A stretch of DNA of 64,000 bases from Polaromonas sp. GTDB taxonomy: Bacteria; Pseudomonadota; Gammaproteobacteria; Burkholderiales; Burkholderiaceae_C. The translations under genes and the position numbers were made by a program. Shown piece after piece: positions 2,640-62,559 of the stretch. The first letter of the stretch is position 1, and the number at the start of each line of letters is the position of its first letter. The stretch spans positions 62,530 to 126,529 of the forward strand of contig NZ_JACPOF010000029.1 in NCBI RefSeq assembly GCF_016185115.1. The letters are read 5' to 3'. The notes under the pieces were generated by a model that saw only the letters and a list, made by a program, of their open reading frames with translations, had not been told where the DNA came from and searched no databases.

Positions 2640-3554
2640 CTACCGCTTCCGGGTTTTGGCACTGGTTTTGGCGCTTTCGCCGTAATACTGCATGCATAAG
2701 TCCCGCGCCAGTTGCACCAGCGAACGGCTGAGCCGCGTCGCAGGCCTGGCTTTTGGCACCGCAATGCACAACCTGTTGCGTATGACAGGCGCGTAAATGG
2801 CGGCCATGTGCGGCGGCGTATCGTGTGTCCACTCCCGCACGGCGCTGGCGGGCAACACGGTGGCTGCCACCCCCCTGGCCACCAGTGACAGCACCGTCTT
2901 GATGGAGTCGACTTCTGCGACCACCTTCAGCAAATGGCCGCGCGGGGCCGCCTCACTTTCGAGCAGTTGACGCAGCGAGTTGGGTTTACTCGGCAACACG
3001 AGCGGCAAGGCTGCCACATCGGCCAGCCGTATGCGCGCGGGCAGCGGTGTCGAGGCCATCAATACCAGCGATTCGCGCGCCACGGTTTCAATATTGAGCA
3101 GCGGCGATGCCGGCGGGTCAAACAGCACGGCCACATCAAGCCGTCCTGCCACCAGCCATTCACGCAGGCGAATGCTCAGCCCCTCTTCCACGCTGATTGC
3201 GGCATCAGGGAATTCGGCGCGAAAACGCTCCACAAGATCGGCCGTCAGGGCGTGCGCCACACGTGGCGGCAGGCCTATGGTGATACGTCCACTGGGTGTG
3301 AGCTGCCTCTCACGCATGTCGGCCCGTGCGCGTTCTGCCAGTTCAAAAATGCCGCGCGCATGCACCAGCAGCGCCAGACCCGCCTCGGTTGGCTCCACGC
3401 CCCTGCCGGTGCGGTTGAGCAGTCGCTGGCCGGTTTCCTGTTCGAGGGCCGCTACCTGCTGGCTCAAGGCCGGTTGCGACATCACCAGCGTGGCGGCAGC
3501 CTTGCTGAAGCTGCCCGCCTCGGCGACCGCCACAAAATATTCAAGCCTGCGCAA
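2640..3554 (-). CDS. LysR-family transcriptional regulator
   Basis: N-terminal HTH (MRRLEYFVAVAEAGSFSKAAATLVMSQPALSQQVAALE) and about 300 aa. Divergent from the catabolic operon. Confidence 0.9.
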   Translation of the reverse strand: MRRLEYFVAVAEAGSFSKAAATLVMSQPALSQQVAALEQETGQRLLNRTGRGVEPTEAGLALLVHARGIFELAERARADMRERQLTPSGRITIGLPPRVAHALTADLVERFRAEFPDAAISVEEGLSIRLREWLVAGRLDVAVLFDPPASPLLNIETVARESLVLMASTPLPARIRLADVAALPLVLPSKPNSLRQLLESEAAPRGHLLKVVAEVDSIKTVLSLVARGVAATVLPASAVREWTHDTPPHMAAIYAPVIRNRLCIAVPKARPATRLSRSLVQLARDLCMQYYGESAKTSAKTRKR

Positions 3555-3668: not shown

Positions 3669-4535
3669 ATGAGCAACACCCTTCTCACTTACAACCCTGC
3701 ACCATCAAAGCCGCAGTTCAGCCTGCCACCCGGTGCATGCGACAGCCATGTGCATGTTTTCGGCCCCGCCATACGCTTTCCGTTTGCACAGGGACGCAAC
3801 TTCACCCCGGCTGATGCACCCAAAGAGAAATTGTTTGCACTGCACGAATACCTGGGCATCTCGCGCTGCGTGATCGTGCAGTCCGCCGTTCACGGCTTTG
3901 ACAATTCAGCAACTGAAGACGCCATTTCGGCAGGCGGCGGCAATTACCTGGGAGTGGCGCTGGTTCCGCACGACGTGCCTGACGAAGAACTCCAGCGCCT
4001 GAAGTCGGCCGGCTTTCGCGGCGTGCGATTCAACTTCATGCCGCACTTGGGCGAAGGTGCCACGCCGCCGCAGGTCATTGCATTGACGCATCGCCTCAAG
4101 CCGCTTGGCATGCACCTGCAGGTTCACTTTGCGAGCAGCCTGATCCATGAACTCGCACCTATCCTGAAAACCTCGGCAGTGCCGGTGGTCATTGATCACA
4201 TGGGCCGCGTCGATGCGACGCTGGGACCTGACCACGCCGACTTTCGCGCACTCTGTACCCTGATGGAAGACCCACTGTTTTACATCAAGGTCAGCGGTGC
4301 CGACCGCATTGATGCCACGCCACCCTACGATCTGGGGGCCGCCCTTGCCCGGCAACTGGTCCAAGCCTTCCCCGATCGCTGCTTCTGGGGCACCGACTGG
4401 CCGCACCCCAACCACACCCACATCCCTGACGACGGCGTGCTGGTAGACACCCTCCAGCGCATCGCCCACACCCCCGAATTGCTGCACAAGCTGCTGGTCA
4501 GCAACCCCCAAAACTTCTACAGGTTTGAAGCATGA
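3669..4535 (+). CDS. amidohydrolase-2 family protein (LigI / lactonase-like)
   Basis: CDSHVHVFGP metal-binding start and DWPHP near the C-terminus. 288 aa. Has a 4-bp ATGA overlap with the next gene. Confidence 0.8.
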   Translation: MSNTLLTYNPAPSKPQFSLPPGACDSHVHVFGPAIRFPFAQGRNFTPADAPKEKLFALHEYLGISRCVIVQSAVHGFDNSATEDAISAGGGNYLGVALVPHDVPDEELQRLKSAGFRGVRFNFMPHLGEGATPPQVIALTHRLKPLGMHLQVHFASSLIHELAPILKTSAVPVVIDHMGRVDATLGPDHADFRALCTLMEDPLFYIKVSGADRIDATPPYDLGAALARQLVQAFPDRCFWGTDWPHPNHTHIPDDGVLVDTLQRIAHTPELLHKLLVSNPQNFYRFEA

Positions 4536-5332
4536 GCAGGCGTCTCCAGGACAAGGTGGTACTGGTGACCGGGGCAGGCTCTGTTGGCCCGGGCTGGGGC
4601 AACGGGCGGGCCATCGCCGTGCGTTTCGCGGAGGAAGGCGCGAAGGTGTTTGCAGTGGACCGGGATGCCGATCGCATGCTTGAGACCATCAGGCTGGTGA
4701 AAGAAGCAGGGGGCGAGATCGAGACCGCCACCTGCGACGTGACGCAGTCCGCTTCCATCGCATCTGTTGTCGAAGCATGCGTCAAACGTTTTGGCCGAAT
4801 CGACATCCTGGTCAACAACGTGGGCGGCTCTGCAGCCGGCGGCCCGGTAGAAATGACAGAAGAGGTGTGGGACGCGCAGATCGACCACAACCTCAAAAGT
4901 GTGTTTTTGACCTGCAAGCACGTGCTGCCATTGATGGAAAGCCAGGGTTCTGGCGCCATCGTCAACATCTCGTCAACCTCGGGCGTGCGCTGGACCGGGT
5001 CCGCACAGGTTGCCTATGCATCGACCAAGGCCGGCGTCATCCAGTTCTCGCGCGTCACTGCGGTGCAGTACGCCAAGGCAGGCATACGCATCAATACCGT
5101 GGTACCGGGCCAGCTCTACACACCCATGGTAGATGTACGCCTTGCCAAACAGCGCACAGGCGGCGACGTCACTGCGCTCCTGCAGCAGCGCCAGTCACGC
5201 ATTCCCCTGCCCTTCATGGGCGACGGGCGCGACACCGCCAATGCTGCCCTTTTTCTTGCTTCAGATGAAGCCCGGTTCATCACCGGTACCGAGCTTGTCG
5301 TCGATGGCGGCATGTCGGTCAGATGCGACTGA
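4532..5332 (+). CDS. SDR-family oxidoreductase
   Basis: VLVTGAGS..G Rossmann motif and the YASTKAG (YxxxK) catalytic motif. Confidence 0.9.
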   Translation: MSRRLQDKVVLVTGAGSVGPGWGNGRAIAVRFAEEGAKVFAVDRDADRMLETIRLVKEAGGEIETATCDVTQSASIASVVEACVKRFGRIDILVNNVGGSAAGGPVEMTEEVWDAQIDHNLKSVFLTCKHVLPLMESQGSGAIVNISSTSGVRWTGSAQVAYASTKAGVIQFSRVTAVQYAKAGIRINTVVPGQLYTPMVDVRLAKQRTGGDVTALLQQRQSRIPLPFMGDGRDTANAALFLASDEARFITGTELVVDGGMSVRCD

Positions 5333-5363
5333 TTTAAACAGAGTAAAAACCCAAGGAGACACC

Positions 5364-6356
5364 ATGACCATACGAAAAAATACCACCCGCAGAAATGCAC
5401 TTACCTTCATCGCAGCGGCCGCAATGGCGCTATCGGCGGGCTTCACCCTGCCAGCTTTTGCCCAGCAAAAAGTTACCCGCCTTGTTGTGGCATTCCCGCC
5501 CGGCGGCCCGGTGGACTTCGTTGCCCGTACCATCAGCGAACAACTGGGCAAGGAACTGAACACCCAGGTCATCGTTGAAAACAAGGCTGGCGCGAACGGT
5601 GCCATCGCCGCCGAATACGTGTCGCGTGCGACACCGGATGGCAGCACCTTGTGGCTCACAAGCGTGGGCGCGGTAGCCATCAACCCGCCTCTCTATGAAA
5701 AGCTGCCCTACGACCCGGTCAGGGACCTGACCCCCATCTCGCTGGTGGTGAACAACGTTGAGCTGCTGGTCGTGCACCCGACCAACCCTGCCAGCAACGG
5801 TGCAGAGTTTGTGGCCAATGCCAAGAAGCGCAAGGAAGGCATCACCATGGCATCTTCAGGCACAGGCAGCGTGCCGCACCTGGCGATGGAACTGCTGGCG
5901 GATGTCAGCAAGGCCAAACTGGTCCACGTCCCCTACAAGGGTGCTGCGCCGGCCATTACCGATGTCATGGCCGGCCACGTGGACGGCTTTTTTGGCGACA
6001 TCCCGGGCCTGGTGGGGTTCATCAAATCCGGCAAGCTCAAGCCCATTGGTATTGCATCGCCCAAACGCCATCCGCTGCTGCCCGACGTCAAGACCTTCAA
6101 GGAAATGGGCCTGCCCGGTGTGGATTCAGACAACTGGTATGCCCTCTTCTCATCCAAAGGCACGCCGACGGCTGAGCTGGCCCGGGTCAACCTGGCCGTT
6201 CAGCGCACCCTGGCAACCGAAAGTGTTCGCAGCAAGCTGATGGCATCGGGCGCCGAGCCTGCGGGCTCCACGCCGGACGCACTGGCCACATTGATGAAAA
6301 ATGACACCGCCAAATGGGGCAAGGTCATTCGCGACAAAAAGATCAAGCCCGAATAA
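5364..6356 (+). CDS. Bug-family (TctC-like) tripartite tricarboxylate transporter substrate-binding protein
   Basis: ATG at 5364 preceded by AAGGAGA. Signal peptide ends AFAQQ, followed by RLVVAFPPGGPVD, a Bug hallmark. The ORF-track start at 5133 is an upstream extension overlapping the SDR gene. Confidence 0.9.
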   Translation: MTIRKNTTRRNALTFIAAAAMALSAGFTLPAFAQQKVTRLVVAFPPGGPVDFVARTISEQLGKELNTQVIVENKAGANGAIAAEYVSRATPDGSTLWLTSVGAVAINPPLYEKLPYDPVRDLTPISLVVNNVELLVVHPTNPASNGAEFVANAKKRKEGITMASSGTGSVPHLAMELLADVSKAKLVHVPYKGAAPAITDVMAGHVDGFFGDIPGLVGFIKSGKLKPIGIASPKRHPLLPDVKTFKEMGLPGVDSDNWYALFSSKGTPTAELARVNLAVQRTLATESVRSKLMASGAEPAGSTPDALATLMKNDTAKWGKVIRDKKIKPE

Positions 6357-13007: not shown

Positions 13008-13084
13008 TGGTAGGCGCGATTGGACTCGAACCAACGACCCCCACCATGTCAAGGTGGTGCTCTAACCAGCTGAGCTACGCGCCT
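13008..13084 (-). tRNA. tRNA-Val (anticodon GAC)
   Basis: The reverse complement reads AGGCGCG TA GCTC AGCTGGTTA GAGC A CCACC TTGACAT GGTGG GGGTC GTTGG TTCGAGT CCAAT CGCGCCT A CCA. Confidence 0.93.
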
Positions 13085-31009: not shown

Positions 31010-31192
31010 GCTTGTCTCCAGATTTTTATAAGAAAGGGCAGCACGGATGCTAGGGACACCGGCGTTGAGGCGACAGACCTCAAATATGACCAAAATATGC
31101 CTTTTAGGCATCACAAACCCTTGCAAAAGGTTGTTTTCATCTAAAAAGGTATGGGAAACCCTTAGAAGACAGGTTTATTGCCATCAATCACA

Positions 31193-31294
31193 CTTTTTGG
31201 CCCCAAAAAGGCATCAAAAGGCCTATTTTTAGCCTCGAATATGGCTATAGCCCTTTAAATACGGGCGTGAGCAGCTACTAAATACATAGCAAAA
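31193..31294 (+). repeat. tail-half copy of the AT-rich intergenic repeat family
   Basis: ..AAAAGGCCTATTTTTAGCC..GGCTATAGCCCTTTAAATACGGGCGTGAGCAGCTACTAAATACATAGCAAAAC aligns with the 3' halves of the copies at 44274, 54291 and 59915. Confidence 0.7.
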
Positions 31295-31301
31295 CTGGCG
31301 T

Positions 31302-31332
31302 AAAAAAGCCCACTCCTGTGCGGGAGCGGGCT
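31302..31332 (-). terminator. intrinsic terminator of the Bug gene ending at 31368
   Basis: The - strand reads AAGCCCGCTCCCGCACAGGAGTGGGCTTTTTTA, a GC-rich stem followed by a T-run. Confidence 0.6.
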
Positions 31333-31367
31333 TGTCGGCGCCAACAACGGGCGGATCAAGCGGCTTG

Positions 31368-33469: not shown

Positions 33470-34522
33470 ATGGCCAACCTGCAGACCACGATAGGCAGCA
33501 TCACCCTGAAGAACCCGGTGATCTGCGGATCGGGCGAACACACCATGAGCGCAGAAGGCATACGCGCGGCGATTGCCAGTGGTGCGGGCGCAGTCGTGGC
33601 CAAATCCACCAACGAATCTGCAGCGGCCAAATCACAGCTGGACAAAACCGACTACCGCCTGCTGGACGAGAACTGGCAGGCCGTGCCCTGGGACTTCAAT
33701 GTGCCGCGCGACGCCACTGTGTTCTGCAGGTCGGGCCTGATACAGCAGGACTTCGAACCATGGATGGCGCAACTGCTCGCCCTTGACAGGGAAGCCGCCG
33801 CTGCTGGCAGCTACGTCATACCCAGCCTGATATTGAGCGGCCTGGACCAGTGCGTGGCTTACGCACAGCAGATTGAAAAAATGGGTTTTCGCATTCTCGA
33901 AGTGAACATAGGCGCACCGCATGGCGATGAGGCCGCCAAGGGCGCCATCATTCTTGAGCGTGATGCCGGCCGCATCACCACCATCGTCAGTCGCCTGCGC
34001 GCCGCCACAAAACTCCCGCTGTGGATCAAGCTCACCGGCCAGAGCGAAGACCCCGCCGCCCTGGCGGTGGCGGCAAAAGACGCCGGCGCCGATGCCGTGG
34101 TGCTGATGGGCCGCTTCATGGGTTTCATGCCTGACCTCGAAACACAGGCACCCCTGCTCAACACATCGGCAGCGATAGGCGGCGGCTGGGCCCTGCCGCT
34201 CACGGCACGCTGCATTGCACTGGCACGCAAACGTGTGGGCCGCAGCTACCCGCTGCTGGCCACCAACGGCGCACGCAGCGGTCTTGATGTCGCACGCTTT
34301 TTGTTGTCAGGCGCAGCGGCTACAGAGATGGCTTCACTGGTACTGATGCGGGGTTATCGCGCGCTGACAGAAGCGATTGCTGAACTTGATGCCTACCTCG
34401 ATGGTTGCGGCAAGTCAGCTGCCGATATCACAGGCACTGCTGCAGACAGTCTGCAAACCTATGGCCAGCAGGCAGACAGGCCTGGCATCTGGCGCGACTT
34501 TGTGCCGCCCGTGAATGTGTAG
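33470..34522 (+). CDS. dihydroorotate dehydrogenase-family (class 1 DHOD / DPD-B-like) TIM-barrel flavoprotein
   Basis: LKNPVICGSG start, and EVNIGAPH, WIKLTG and NGARSG motifs of the DHOD/DHPD family. Confidence 0.7.
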   Translation: MANLQTTIGSITLKNPVICGSGEHTMSAEGIRAAIASGAGAVVAKSTNESAAAKSQLDKTDYRLLDENWQAVPWDFNVPRDATVFCRSGLIQQDFEPWMAQLLALDREAAAAGSYVIPSLILSGLDQCVAYAQQIEKMGFRILEVNIGAPHGDEAAKGAIILERDAGRITTIVSRLRAATKLPLWIKLTGQSEDPAALAVAAKDAGADAVVLMGRFMGFMPDLETQAPLLNTSAAIGGGWALPLTARCIALARKRVGRSYPLLATNGARSGLDVARFLLSGAAATEMASLVLMRGYRALTEAIAELDAYLDGCGKSAADITGTAADSLQTYGQQADRPGIWRDFVPPVNV

Positions 34523-34795
34523 GGTCTTCCCCATACTGGTCACGGTTGTCCCAGCACTTTCAAGAGCTAAAAAGACTTGCAGCCCAGTAGTGGCGGCCTT
34601 GTCTGAAGACATGCTCCTTCTGTGAACGCATTCCGGTCACTGGAAAACCCTCCCAAAGTACAGACAGGTTTTCGATATGCCCGGGCTATAGTGCAGGCAA
34701 TAACCGCAAAAACAGTTTGCGGGGTTTGACGGATTCTTTATGAACGTACAACCACGTACAAAAATATCGGCAAACCCGATACACATGCCGGTTCC

Positions 34796-34872
34796 AGGAG
34801 GATTTTCATGACCAGCTTATGTTGCAGTTGCCAGGTTAGGCCGTAGGTGTTGCGGCACACATTACGTTAGAC
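34796..34872 (+). promoter_or_regulatory. attI-like left junction: SD plus 12-codon mini-ORF overlapping four direct GTT-N4 repeats
   Basis: AGGAGG (34796-34801), 6 nt, then ATG 34808...TAG 34846 (MTSLCCSCQVRP). GTTGCAG at 34821, GTTAGGC at 34835, GTTGCGG at 34849 and GTTAGAC at 34866. The last is identical to the R' core of the middle attC. Confidence 0.35.
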
Positions 34873-34949
34873 CTCATGGAGAACAATCACACGCTGTAAC
34901 AGTGCCAGCGAAACTAGGTCATCCAAGATTAAGAACTGAGGGGTAGGAA

Positions 34950-35159
34950 ATGAGTCCAACAATAGCTCCACCGATACCAGAGAAATGCGAAAAATGCGCG
35001 CGTTGCGTTGAGGTAGCCATAACTAGTAACCCATTTGATTTCGATGCTCCGTCGTTCAACTCGGAATGCAACCTCGATGGTTGTCCGGTAAACGCGCGGA
35101 ATCAGCCAAACTCGGATGAACGGGTGAATGTCTATTTCGTGAATTGTGATGAGGCCTAA
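34950..35159 (+). CDS. cassette 1: small Cys-rich hypothetical protein (69 aa)
   Basis: ATG preceded by GAGGGG. Cys at positions 13, 16, 19, 40, 45 and 66. The stop TAA lies inside the degenerate inverse core GCCTAAT. An overlapping TTG-start ORF on the - strand is the alternative reading. Confidence 0.4.
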   Translation: MSPTIAPPIPEKCEKCARCVEVAITSNPFDFDAPSFNSECNLDGCPVNARNQPNSDERVNVYFVNCDEA

Positions 35160-35243
35160 TTTATCAATCGACAAGGACGCACAACAGCAGACTGTGGTTT
35201 TGCCGCAAGTGTTGGTTGTACGGTCATTTTTGCGTTAAACCGC
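35151..35243 (+). repeat. attC-like site 1 (degenerate): GCCTAAT ... GTTAAAC
   Basis: 87 bp from R'' to R', the same length as site 2. An ungapped alignment to site 2 gives 52/93 identities by hand count, with shared blocks TCGACA.GGA and GCCG...GTGTTG. Its own arm pairing is weak. Confidence 0.55.
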
Positions 35244-35244
35244 A

Positions 35245-35667
35245 ATGGCTATGGACCTTGCACTTTCTCAGGCCACTGCGAGTGCATTTCTGGAGGCATT
35301 TCGGCGCTGCGAGCCTGACGCCAATGACTCAAAGTACTTCATGGCATTCCCTGCATTGGTCTGCGCTGCCTTTTCTGCCGAGGTGGGGCTCAAGACAATT
35401 TTAAAAAGGGAGGGGAAAAGTGCGCATGGTCATGATCTTCTCTCTCTATTCATGCAGCTTTCAGACGAGAAAAAGATCGAAATCGCAGATGAAACCGGCA
35501 TTTCAATTGAAGACTTTGCAGCGCATCTAAACCACTCGAAAAAAGCGTTCTTGGAATGGCGCTATATCTATGAAGAGTCTGGCGAAAAAATGATTAGTCT
35601 TCTTTTCATTGGAAAATTCGCCGCAGCTGTCGAGGCGGCGGGCCTCAGAATGAAAAATGCGGTCTAA
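35245..35667 (+). CDS. cassette 2: HEPN-like domain protein (140 aa)
   Basis: All-helical-looking sequence with R55-x5-H61 (LKREGKSAHGHDLLSLF) and a downstream FLEWRYIYE, resembling HEPN signatures. The ATG starts 5 nt after the preceding GTTAAAC. The stop TAA lies inside GTCTAAC. Confidence 0.55.
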   Translation: MAMDLALSQATASAFLEAFRRCEPDANDSKYFMAFPALVCAAFSAEVGLKTILKREGKSAHGHDLLSLFMQLSDEKKIEIADETGISIEDFAAHLNHSKKAFLEWRYIYEESGEKMISLLFIGKFAAAVEAAGLRMKNAV

Positions 35668-35751
35668 CATGTTGCTCGACACGGAAACACAACTACACAC
35701 TCGTACTTCGCCGATCGTGTTGCGCTCCTGTCAGCCTCGATGTTAGACCGC
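35659..35751 (+). repeat. attC-like site 2: GTCTAAC ... GTTAGAC
   Basis: Perfect 12-bp terminal inverted repeat GCGGTCTAACAT / ATGTTAGACCGC. The arms continue to pair (GCT, GACA, GGA) with single bulged bases. 87 bp from R'' to R'. Confidence 0.75.
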
Positions 35752-35845
35752 ACATTCACCTCTGTGTCAACGCGAAGCTTGAAGACGACCAGCACCTGAA
35801 CTTGAATTTGAACTCAGCCCGTGCATACAAAATCGAATACCCGAC

Positions 35846-36490
35846 ATGACTCATACACAGACCGCGCGGCTTCTCACGTCCTTCATTCGGTATGCCGATG
35901 AAAAGGGTTCCATTGACAAACATAACGAGGAGTTCTTCGGAGAGATTGGCGCGCTGTACTCGAACGGGAATCAACTCAGCGAACATCTGTACGAATTGAG
36001 CGCGGCAGGCGTTGTGTACTATGAAGAAATTGGAGAAGACGGCTTCGCCCCGATCATCATGGCGGGCTGCACAAAGCAGACAGCAGCGCATCTTGCTAGT
36101 CTTCTCAAAGAGATCGATGCAGATGTAGAAGGTCTGCGACGGCGTATCAACGAAATACTGACTTTTGATCCCGATCGCCTGAAGTCAGAAATCAGCGTCG
36201 CAGAAGAGAAGCTTGGTGCTGCCCGCAGGGCCGCGGAGGAGAACGAGTTGCTCAGACCTCTTCTTCGGCAAATAACTGAGATAGAGAAGTATTTCCACGG
36301 CGTCTCCGCAGTGGCTGACAAATACGAAGATGTGTACAAAAACATCATCCGGCCGGTTCAACTTGAAGGAAAGTCAGGTGTCGAGGCTACCGTACGCTGG
36401 GCCATCATCAGTATCGTTGCATCGACAGCCATCTCAGTCGTGTTGGGAAATTGGAAGGAGCTTGCGCAGCTGTTTAGGAGCCTGATATGA
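35846..36490 (+). CDS. cassette 3: hypothetical protein, winged-helix-like N-terminus, coiled coil, C-terminal TM anchor (214 aa)
   Basis: Residues about 90-170 are heptad-like and charged. Residues about 184-202 (WAIISIVASTAISVVLGNW) are hydrophobic. No family recognised. No clear Shine-Dalgarno sequence. Confidence 0.65.
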   Translation: MTHTQTARLLTSFIRYADEKGSIDKHNEEFFGEIGALYSNGNQLSEHLYELSAAGVVYYEEIGEDGFAPIIMAGCTKQTAAHLASLLKEIDADVEGLRRRINEILTFDPDRLKSEISVAEEKLGAARRAAEENELLRPLLRQITEIEKYFHGVSAVADKYEDVYKNIIRPVQLEGKSGVEATVRWAIISIVASTAISVVLGNWKELAQLFRSLI

Positions 36491-36513
36491 GGGGAAAGGA
36501 TGAAAGTGCGACA

Positions 36514-36592
36514 GCGGTCTAACAGGTCGTTCGACGCGGACACGCAGCGGCGCAATGGCACTGCGCGCCGGGCAGTTCCAAGGTTAAGCCCC
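36514..36592 (+). repeat. attC-like site 3: GTCTAAC ... GTTAAGC
   Basis: The 5' arm GCGGTCTAACAGGTCGTTCGACGCGGACAC matches the site 2 5' arm at 28/35 positions. The 3' end is GTTAAGC. 73 bp. Arm pairing is weaker than in site 2. Confidence 0.5.
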
Positions 36593-36669
36593 CATTTGCC
36601 TTCCGAAGCGAATCATTTACCTCCCTTCCGGCTTCAGCACTGTGAAGCCTTACTACCAGACGGCGCAGC

Positions 36670-37452
36670 TCAGTTCGCAATCGTTTCCTGATAGGCCGCT
36701 TCAATCCGCGCAGCCGCATCCCGCAATATCGGCAAATAACGTCGTGTAGCCTCATCGAACTTGATGGCCGAATCTATCCAGATGATGTTGATGCAGCCCA
36801 GCACGTGGGCTCCATTCATGATGGGCACGGCGATGCTGGATGTTTTGGCCATGAACTCGCGCTGGCGCGTGCCGTAGCCGCGCCGCCTTGTGGCCGCCAG
36901 TGTGCGCCGAACGGCTTCAGGGTCCTGCATCTTGTCCTGGTCAGGCCCGGGCACCGAGCTGATACGTTCAAGAATGGCCTTGCGCTCCGGCAGCGGTGAG
37001 AAGGCCAGGTAAGTCCAGCCTATCGCTGTACTCAACATCGGCAGGTGCCGCCCCACCCACGAACGTTCTATGGAAAGCGGGCTGCGGAAATGGGTGGTTG
37101 AACGTATCACCATGCCATCGTCTTCATAGGTGGCGACATCTGTGGGCCAGACCACCTCATTGACCAGTTCACCCAGCACCACATCGGCGATTTGGGTGAT
37201 CCAGTCGTCATCCTTGTAACCACCGGACAGGCTTTTGACCTTCAGCGTGAGGCGGTAGGCATCGCGCAAACCGCTGCGCTGCAAAAAACCTTCTGTGCGC
37301 AGCGTCTCCAGCAGGCGGTGCACGGTCGGCCGCGGCAGGCCGGTGTGCGCAGCCACCTCGACCGTCGTTGCATGCTGCAGTGCATTCACGGCGCGCAACA
37401 CAGCGAGGCCGCGTTCCAGCCCGCGCACCGAGTGATAGGTGGATGTCGTCAT
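36670..37452 (-). CDS. IclR-family transcriptional regulator
   Basis: N-terminal wHTH (LERGLAVLRAVNALQHATTVEVAAHTGLPRPTVHRLLETL) and an IclR effector domain. Confidence 0.9.
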   Translation of the reverse strand: MTTSTYHSVRGLERGLAVLRAVNALQHATTVEVAAHTGLPRPTVHRLLETLRTEGFLQRSGLRDAYRLTLKVKSLSGGYKDDDWITQIADVVLGELVNEVVWPTDVATYEDDGMVIRSTTHFRSPLSIERSWVGRHLPMLSTAIGWTYLAFSPLPERKAILERISSVPGPDQDKMQDPEAVRRTLAATRRRGYGTRQREFMAKTSSIAVPIMNGAHVLGCINIIWIDSAIKFDEATRRYLPILRDAAARIEAAYQETIAN

Positions 37453-62361: not shown

Positions 62362-62408
62362 ATTTTTACTCAAACCATCCATTCAACAGGAATCAATCAA
62401 TTCCCTTA

Positions 62409-62426
62409 GAGAATTTAAAAATTCTC
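62409..62426. promoter_or_regulatory. palindrome GAGAATTT-AA-AAATTCTC
   Basis: Perfect 8-2-8 inverted repeat in the same divergent region. Confidence 0.3.
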
Positions 62427-62559
62427 AGTGTGTTTAATGCATAGCCGAAAGCAGCATCAGGGTAAATACGCATTTATTGATATGCCTGTTAATTTATGCT
62501 TCGGTCATTGTGAACGCACTGCACAGGCACGCAAGCCATCAATCCCAGGAGACAGACAC

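Follow-up and report, generated by a model that had tools for sequence, protein, structure and literature searches.

The open reading frame (ORF) at positions 35245-35667 of a 64-kb stretch of Polaromonas sp. DNA (hereafter the window, meaning the whole stretch analysed) encodes a stand-alone HEPN protein of the HEPN-T (PF05168-like) branch, a variant resembling AF0298 and TT1696, and is the only gene of a mobile integron cassette. We propose, with moderate confidence, that this AF0298-like protein binds or cleaves RNA, does so without an antitoxin, and plays a part in conflicts with phages. A first-pass annotation, made from the letters and ORF translations alone, had already reported a 140-amino-acid (aa) ORF here, and the ORF calls confirm it, on the forward strand. 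The two features on which the argument turns are the following.

35245-35667, + strand: coding sequence (CDS) of the HEPN-fold protein, a confirmed ORF of 140 aa, with E46, K50, H63, F102, W105, R106, Y107, Y109 and E110 invariant
35235-35742, + strand: mobile unit of 508 bp, an integron cassette with one gene; it begins at the TT of the GTTAAAC core upstream and ends at the G of the cassette's own GTTAGAC core

The ORF is a real gene and evolves under purifying selection. Against a 95%-identical copy from metagenomic contigs, the ratio of nonsynonymous to synonymous substitution rates (dN/dS) is 0.11, with 16 of the 23 substitutions synonymous. A total of 51 close relatives were found for the 140-aa protein.

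Evidence for the HEPN fold

The first-pass annotation described the product as all-helical and HEPN-like, and both descriptions hold. An AlphaFold2 model built on an alignment of 42 relatives is all-helical (mean predicted local distance difference test score, pLDDT, 92.4; predicted template modelling score, pTM, 0.85), with seven helices at residues 5-21, 34-55, 65-70, 74-83, 88-97, 101-106 and 119-139. When the model was compared with the PDB using Foldseek, ranks 1 to 5 were all classical HEPN proteins, namely 2hsb (AF0298), 1ufb (TT1696), 4nqf (two chains) and 1wol (ST0689), with probabilities of 0.75-0.99, while the next match fell below 0.1. The BFVD library of viral structures returned a single strong match, a phage 'HEPN domain-containing protein' (E 5e-6, template modelling (TM) score 0.73, 27% identity).

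Direct scans with the query gave no significant match, and family-level scans were therefore needed. PF05168 (HEPN) is the only Pfam family to recur among the relatives, matching 17 of the 42 close and 16 of the 36 distant ones at E<=0.1. Three relatives with 48-51% identity to the query exceed its curated cut-off of 22 bits (P0039, 27.1 bits; P0028, 24.4; P0029, 24.6), and in P0039 the envelope covers residues 43-115 against profile positions 33-96. Searched against PDB sequences, the family profile finds TT1696 (1ufb) as its best match and aligns E46-x3-K50...G62-H63 with AAEAALK...GH; the E-values in this search were 0.13-0.36. A profile search did not reach the classical HEPN proteins. The Pfam cut-off passes, the Foldseek ranking, the BFVD match and the TT1696 motif alignment are independent lines of evidence, and their convergence establishes membership of the HEPN fold. 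The HEPN profile search and structure prediction recommended in the first-pass annotation thus bear out its assignment at the level of family and fold, though not through any Pfam match of the query by itself.

The conserved residues

The same annotation took R55-x5-H61 for the R-x4-6-H motif displayed by HEPN ribonucleases (RNases) and toxins. The sequence does carry R55 and H61 within LKREGKSAHGHDLLSLF, together with H63-D64-L65-x-x-L68 and, at residues 102-110, FLEWRYIYE. Conservation was assessed in 42 close relatives and in 47 distinct relatives drawn from Proteobacteria, Cyanobacteria, Firmicutes, Planctomycetes and one archaeal metagenome-assembled genome. R55 is kept in only 9 of the 47, and position 61 most often holds K, R, E, T or S, with H61 found in few. 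At least one R-x4-6-H also arises in 35% of shuffles of the 140-aa sequence. Poor conservation and this shuffle frequency together rule out R55-x5-H61 as the active site. The pair moreover lies at the end of helix 2, whereas the canonical motif belongs at the end of helix 3, a position at which R-x4-6-H is not conserved in the HEPN-like family alignments. Judged by sequence conservation, R-x5-H is a coincidence beside the true conserved histidine, H63.

The residues that do not vary among the relatives are E46, K50, H63, F102 and the block W105-R106-Y107-x-Y109-E110, which persist down to ~25% identity and across several phyla; H63 is invariant in all full-length relatives. In the alignments, conservation of H63, R106, Y107, W105, E110, E46 and K50 goes far beyond chance. 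After the invariant R106 comes Y-I-Y-E-E, without a conserved histidine. Two other features cited in the first-pass annotation as HEPN signs, the H-D-L-x-x-L helix start and the downstream RY, therefore turn out to be true family signatures, since H63, W105, R106, Y107 and E110 are all invariant. That annotation had allowed that a non-HEPN family with unconserved R and H residues would speak against it: R55 and H61 are indeed unconserved, but the searches point to HEPN. The residues to target by mutagenesis are accordingly H63, R106, E46, K50 and E110 instead of R55 or H61.

A variant of the AF0298 type

Several bona fide HEPN families lack R-x4-6-H (Anantharaman et al. 2013, PMC3710099), so the motif is not required for membership of the fold. 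In AF0298-type HEPN-T proteins and in AbiV, the motif histidine is typically absent while a basic residue at the arginine position is present; the AF0298-type variant has a second strongly conserved histidine N-terminal to the motif, and a conserved acidic residue of helix 2 adjoins the site (PMC3710099). The same authors argued that this constellation of arginine and alternative histidine is possibly catalytic, which is a prediction, and noted that HEPN domains without the motif can be inactive binding domains, some HEPN-T members among them (PMC3710099).

The query fits this description. E46 and K50 are on helix 2, H63 sits in the connector at residues 56-64 between model helices 34-55 and 65-70, and R106 lies just ahead of the last helix, with Y-x-Y-E and no histidine after it. 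By its alignment with the G-H of TT1696, H63 corresponds to the alternative histidine. The first-pass annotation noted that HEPN toxins normally sit beside an antitoxin gene; the idea of such a typical toxin finds no support here, the protein belonging to the HEPN-T/AF0298-like branch, which is without the canonical motif.

A single-gene integron cassette

The ORF had been assigned a cassette of its own, and this is borne out at both ends by attC sites and homology.

35662-35748, + strand: attC of the HEPN cassette, with R'' core GTCTAAC at 35662-35668 and R' core GTTAGAC at 35742-35748, identified by pattern scan, covariance model and fold
35154-35240, + strand: degenerate attC of the upstream cassette, with R''-like GCCTAAT and R' GTTAAAC at 35234-35240, marking the 5' junction of the HEPN cassette

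In order, the 508-bp cassette comprises 10 bases of leader, the CDS and an attC; this attC and the stop codon overlap, the TAA of the HEPN gene lying within the R'' core GTCTAAC. In a covariance-model search, with 21 attC sites from other loci as the training set, 35662-35748 is the best match in the window (30 bits, E 1.2e-4 on the + strand; 7.9 bits on the - strand), and the bottom strand of this site folds at -24.6 kcal/mol (z -5.1). The degenerate site at 35154-35240 gives no covariance-model match at E<=10 and folds no better than shuffles (z -0.26). The 5' junction is backed by a homology breakpoint at 35233 and by comparison with GTTAGACCGCA preceding the ATG on other contigs. A strict attC pattern scan of the window returned only 35662-35748 and an AT-rich imperfect palindrome of 114 bp at 62381-62494 (ATTCAAC...GTTAATT), which was rejected as an attC because the covariance model gives it no support.

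The gene moves as a single unit. The 95%-identical protein, P0001, is encoded on at least six metagenomic contigs with differing neighbours: upstream are ORFs of 122, 148 or 163 aa, and downstream are ORFs of 54 or 147 aa, or one of 199 aa that matches HNH weakly. Comparison with six of these contigs by blastn gave 92% identity over exactly 35233-35749 and none outside. The junctions in the copies read GTTA[A/G]ACCGCA directly before the ATG at the 5' side and [G/C]TTAG[A/G]C at the 3' side.

No IntI-like sequence or remnant was found in the 64-kb window by tblastn, and the array is therefore a remnant of the CALIN type (cluster of attC sites lacking integrase, a term reportedly due to Cury et al. 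2016). Relatives of the HEPN gene are also cassette-borne elsewhere, being flanked by attC in at least 13 independent loci. These comprise loci used to train the covariance model (L004, L007, L010, L018 and L022) and independent ones (L008, L011, L020, L025, L036, L039, L045 and L053/56/57). All 20 covariance-model matches in 41 foreign loci share the strand of the HEPN gene. The first cassette in L008 and L036 is the relative itself, adjoining a divergent IntI-type integrase.

No conserved partner

No cognate minimal nucleotidyltransferase (MNT) or antitoxin gene was reported in the first-pass annotation, and the wider search agrees, finding none in the window or at the related loci examined. 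Pfam scans found no nucleotidyltransferase among the flanking window ORFs scanned, nor among the immediate neighbours of relatives in >40 loci. When neighbour ORFs were clustered over all loci, integrase was the only recurrent family. For the two neighbouring cassette ORFs in the window, of 69 and 214 aa, a search of 58 fetched HEPN-homologue loci found no relatives. A neighbouring cassette gene is therefore ruled out as the partner, since the cassette moves alone, its neighbours differ between copies and none recurs in the 58 loci. No conserved ORF overlaps the HEPN CDS: those that overlap it vary in position and strand from one relative to the next, and are missing altogether from some, which rules out a hidden second gene. 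No conserved partner of any kind thus accompanies the gene in the loci examined, and non-canonical pairing and an embedded antitoxin are both unlikely. The first-pass annotation left three options, a stand-alone HEPN, a non-canonical pairing or a non-catalytic HEPN; the first is favoured and the second disfavoured, and the third is weighed below.

Two loci of relatives deserve separate mention. In Lysobacter cavernae (L010/L013), the HEPN homologue directly follows a cassette with a unit of two genes (2866-3462), one of them matching dnstrm_HI1420, a family of HigA-like antitoxins; the cassette is of the usual toxin-antitoxin kind, with an attC between it and the HEPN cassette. In Chromobacterium haemolyticum (L031), a distant member at 4920-5420 starts 7 nt after a patatin-like phospholipase gene at 3729-4913 (Pfam E 1e-18). 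This arrangement was seen once, and the two genes may form a unit.

Size and distribution of the family

An exhaustive profile search recovered 3,745 clusters (50% identity) at E<=1e-3, of which 944 remain at E<=1e-10; nearly all of the 150 clusters listed are single-domain proteins of 130-160 aa. NCBI, UniRef and JGI already label several members 'HEPN domain-containing protein'. The Pfam copy searched holds no model of its own for this W-R-Y-x-Y-E family, and a literature search gave no characterisation of it.

The family is not limited to integrons, as the BFVD protein A0A8S5QFF3 (145 aa, Siphoviridae sp. ct73D3) is a phage-encoded member. A tblastn search of a phage collection of 50,697 GenBank phage records found no family match. 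A plasmid collection yielded one distant match, at 4920-5993 of the Eleftheria terrae megaplasmid NZ_CP106953.1 (L059), where the HEPN-like domain is the N-terminal part of a 357-aa 'hypothetical protein' whose C-terminal half has no informative Pfam match. The same region of the megaplasmid also carries an Imm7 immunity protein and transposases. Relatives from firmicutes, and some other distant ones, lie outside integrons.

Proposed function and alternatives

We propose that the protein would dimerise, as other HEPN proteins do, and that the cluster formed by E46, K50, H63 and R106, perhaps with Y107 and E110, would bind and probably cleave RNA. No dedicated antitoxin would be needed, the protein being either intrinsically weak or latent until triggered. 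By analogy with single-gene HEPN defence cassettes, its selective value would lie in conflict with phages or other mobile elements. The promoterless 508-bp cassette with its own attC travels alone, and is here parked in an integrase-less array of three cassettes in a Burkholderiales-like chromosome.

Several observations weigh against this proposal. The query alone has no significant match in Pfam, NCBIfam, PADLOC or PDB sequences, and none to PF05168 at E<=1, and the five HEPN matches in Foldseek are weak to modest in E-value (0.085-0.6) and TM score (0.37-0.53). R106 probably occupies the position of the motif arginine, a placement drawn from the Pfam envelope and the fold matches, and the closeness of H63 and R106 in space is a prediction. 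A literature search turned up no reported activity for any AF0298-type HEPN protein. The family is mildly acidic (median isoelectric point 6.3; query 5.56), which is unlike an avid RNA binder. Finally, no promoter-like site was found in the island at 34550-36600 and no obvious Shine-Dalgarno sequence ahead of the HEPN ATG, so that expression here would hinge on read-through; any expression of the HEPN cassette in this array is probably low.

Chief among the alternatives is a non-catalytic HEPN protein, a harmless binder of a nucleotide, RNA or protein ligand in which the E/K/H/R/Y/E set would form the binding pocket. We regard this as a serious possibility, though the less probable of the two. 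It would account for travel without an antitoxin, and it is consistent with the absence of the canonical R-x4-6-H, with the acidic character of the family and with a cassette that moves alone and for which no partner was found; motif-less HEPN domains, including some HEPN-T members, can be inactive binders (PMC3710099). Against it stands the invariance of nine positions, of which six are polar or charged, maintained to ~25% identity across several phyla, a pattern typical of catalysis or of very specific ligand binding. The arginine and alternative histidine could moreover be catalytic (PMC3710099), and enrichment in cassettes together with presence in a phage suggests a role in genetic conflict.

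It is improbable that the protein is the orphaned toxin of a HEPN/MNT (type VII) or other toxin-antitoxin pair whose antitoxin acts in trans, has been lost or is encoded by a neighbouring cassette gene. HEPN-T proteins are classically tied to minimal nucleotidyltransferases (PMC3710099) and integron arrays are rich in toxin-antitoxin cassettes, and by a speculative analogy with HepT/MntA the tyrosines Y107 and Y109 beside R106 might serve as nucleotidylylation sites. The mobile unit, however, ends at its own attC sites and holds one gene only, the 95%-identical copy has other neighbours on other contigs, and neither adjacent ORF has relatives in the 58 related loci. No MNT stands beside any relative examined and no overlapping ORF is conserved, so that the version with an adjacent partner is already largely refuted, and the low dN/dS speaks against a decaying orphan. 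Least probable of all is that the protein is an unrelated helical bundle with a superficial likeness to HEPN, for although the query lacks a significant Pfam match, the E-values of the profile search against PDB sequences and of Foldseek (all >0.08) are weak and the root-mean-square deviation is 6.6-8.6 Å for the five HEPN matches, this reading is opposed by the three homologues above the Pfam cut-off, the clean sweep of HEPN proteins among the best five PDB folds, the BFVD match and the E-x3-K...GH alignment with TT1696.

A bolder extension of the preferred reading, that of a stand-alone RNA-targeting HEPN, is possible but doubtful. The W-R-Y-x-Y-E family as a whole may be a widespread class of minimal (~140 aa), antitoxin-free HEPN RNases with an H63/R106 site, each acting as an abortive-infection module that consists of one gene, is triggered by phage and is spread by integrons. 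If so, it would offer the first experimental proof of catalysis at an AF0298-type 'alternative histidine' site. An active protein would be a tiny, self-contained model both for whether the arginine and alternative-histidine site predicted in 2013 cleaves RNA and for how a HEPN nuclease can be carried safely without an antitoxin, and would add a family of ~3,700 sequence clusters to the compact defence genes kept in integron cassettes. A protein that does no more than bind would make this an ordinary cassette gene.

Genomic surroundings

The HEPN cassette lies in a short island of low GC (guanine plus cytosine) content, whose other features are as follows.

34550-36600, strand not applicable: low-GC island, defined by composition, with the three-cassette array inside and no integrase
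34950-35159, + strand: ORF of the upstream cassette, 69 aa, Cys-rich (CEKCARC...), from the ORF list
35846-36490, + strand: ORF of the downstream cassette, 214 aa, with a C-terminal hydrophobic stretch WAIISIVASTAISVVLG, from the ORF list
36517-36589, + strand: probable attC of the third cassette, marginal (GTCTAAC ... GTTAAGC), the third-best covariance-model match in the window (13 bits, E 0.69)

Over ~2 kb the GC content of the island is ~48-52%, against a window average of ~61%, and 35001-36000 is the kilobase of lowest GC in the whole window. The island is bounded by a DHO_dh-like gene at 33470-34522 (+) and an IclR-type regulator at 36670-37452 (-). A DHO_dh-like neighbour is common to the window and to locus L015; at only 24% identity, this was dismissed as a coincidence.

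The Cys-rich 69-aa ORF and the coiled-coil/transmembrane protein named as neighbours in the first-pass annotation are both present, the latter being the 214-aa ORF. The 69-aa product has a Fer4 (4Fe-4S) match below threshold (E 0.0024; 18.1 bits against a cut-off of 21.1), and its stop codon falls within the degenerate attC core GCCTAAT. The 214-aa product has nothing above a family cut-off, its PADLOC match to '2TM effector' being weak (E 0.032), and no relatives across the fetched loci; it could be a further small defence-type cassette gene. The marginal attC behind it is on the expected strand and in the expected place, and its left arm GTCTAACaggtcgttcgac resembles the left arms of attC sites in L008, L010 and L011; its fold is not significant. 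At the left end of the island (34550-34870) there are GTTAGGC and GTTAGAC cores at ~34836-34872, with no recognisable full attC, attI or integrase remnant.

Elsewhere in the window, another short dip in GC content (~46%) occupies an intergenic stretch at 31050-31350, 5' of a gene for a binding protein of the tripartite tricarboxylate transporter type. The sole Rfam match in the window is a tRNA gene at 13011-13084 (-). Comparison with plasmids to identify the organism gave just two short matches, to Variovorax.

Comparison with known HEPN systems

The closest likeness is to the HEPN-T proteins of the AF0298/TT1696 type. Shared features are the all-helical HEPN fold, with 2hsb and 1ufb as best fold matches, the E-x3-K of helix 2, and a histidine in the connector between helices 2 and 3 that starts an H-[DN]-L-x-x-L helix. 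In both, an arginine appears to be retained at the motif position, followed by a tyrosine, and the canonical motif histidine is missing; stand-alone versions of this type also exist. The query differs in falling below the Pfam threshold, and its family in having the invariant W-R-Y-x-Y-E and extra short helices (88-106). The family also lacks any linkage to nucleotidyltransferases and is found on integron cassettes, mostly in Proteobacteria, whereas the other proteins come from archaeal or thermophile MNT operons.

The type VII toxin-antitoxin system HepT/MntA, a HEPN protein of DUF86/PF01934 with an MNT (for example SO_3166/SO_3165 of Shewanella), shares the superfamily fold, small size and an arginine near conserved tyrosines. 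The query, by contrast, lacks R-x4-H and belongs to another HEPN clade. It has no adjacent MNT, in the window or beside any relative, and its toxicity would be hypothetical.

A HEPN-fold protein encoded by an integron gene cassette has a precedent in the 'Integron cassette HEPN' family (PDB 3jrt, a Vibrio cassette protein), which keeps R-x4-6-H (PMC3710099, Table 1); integron-borne HEPN proteins have been proposed to act as RNases that induce stress or dormancy (PMC3710099). 3jrt turns up neither in our profile searches (E<=10) nor among the 50 best Foldseek matches. Because it is absent from both sequence and fold matches, and because the canonical motif is absent from the query family, the two families are distinct, and ours is a separate HEPN family that is independently cassette-borne.

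The proposed mode of action has its nearest counterparts in AbiV, Esos (likened here by description), RAZR/PD-T7-4 and AbiU2-type proteins, all of them small HEPN proteins whose action involves no protein antitoxin, and several of them cassette-borne. Esos, from a Vibrio cholerae integron cassette, is a single-gene HEPN defence, and of the known systems found in cassettes AbiV is one of the commonest (10.1101/2024.07.02.601686); a cassette protein with a HEPN AbiU2 domain gives resistance to T4 and T7 (10.64898/2026.03.17.712381). RAZR/PD-T7-4, a HEPN RNase made up of one protein, stays inactive until it has assembled around ring proteins of the phage (PMC13017515). AbiV also shares the 'alternative histidine' feature (PMC3710099). 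The query has no significant PADLOC or Pfam match to the AbiV, AbiU2 or PD-T7-4 models; 2 of the 36 distant relatives touch PD-T7-4 weakly (E 6e-4), and none touches AbiV. Unlike RAZR, it has no zinc-finger domain, and its 140 aa include no extra N-terminal domain. Lactococcus AbiV needs an RNA antitoxin (10.1101/2024.05.05.592566), for which the 508-bp cassette has no room save in the attC transcript. Descriptions already exist of HEPN-T variants, of HEPN proteins borne by integrons and of HEPN defence proteins encoded by one gene; the main value of the present protein lies in its corrected target residues and in its being a clean and minimal candidate for studying the 'alternative histidine' site of HEPN proteins.

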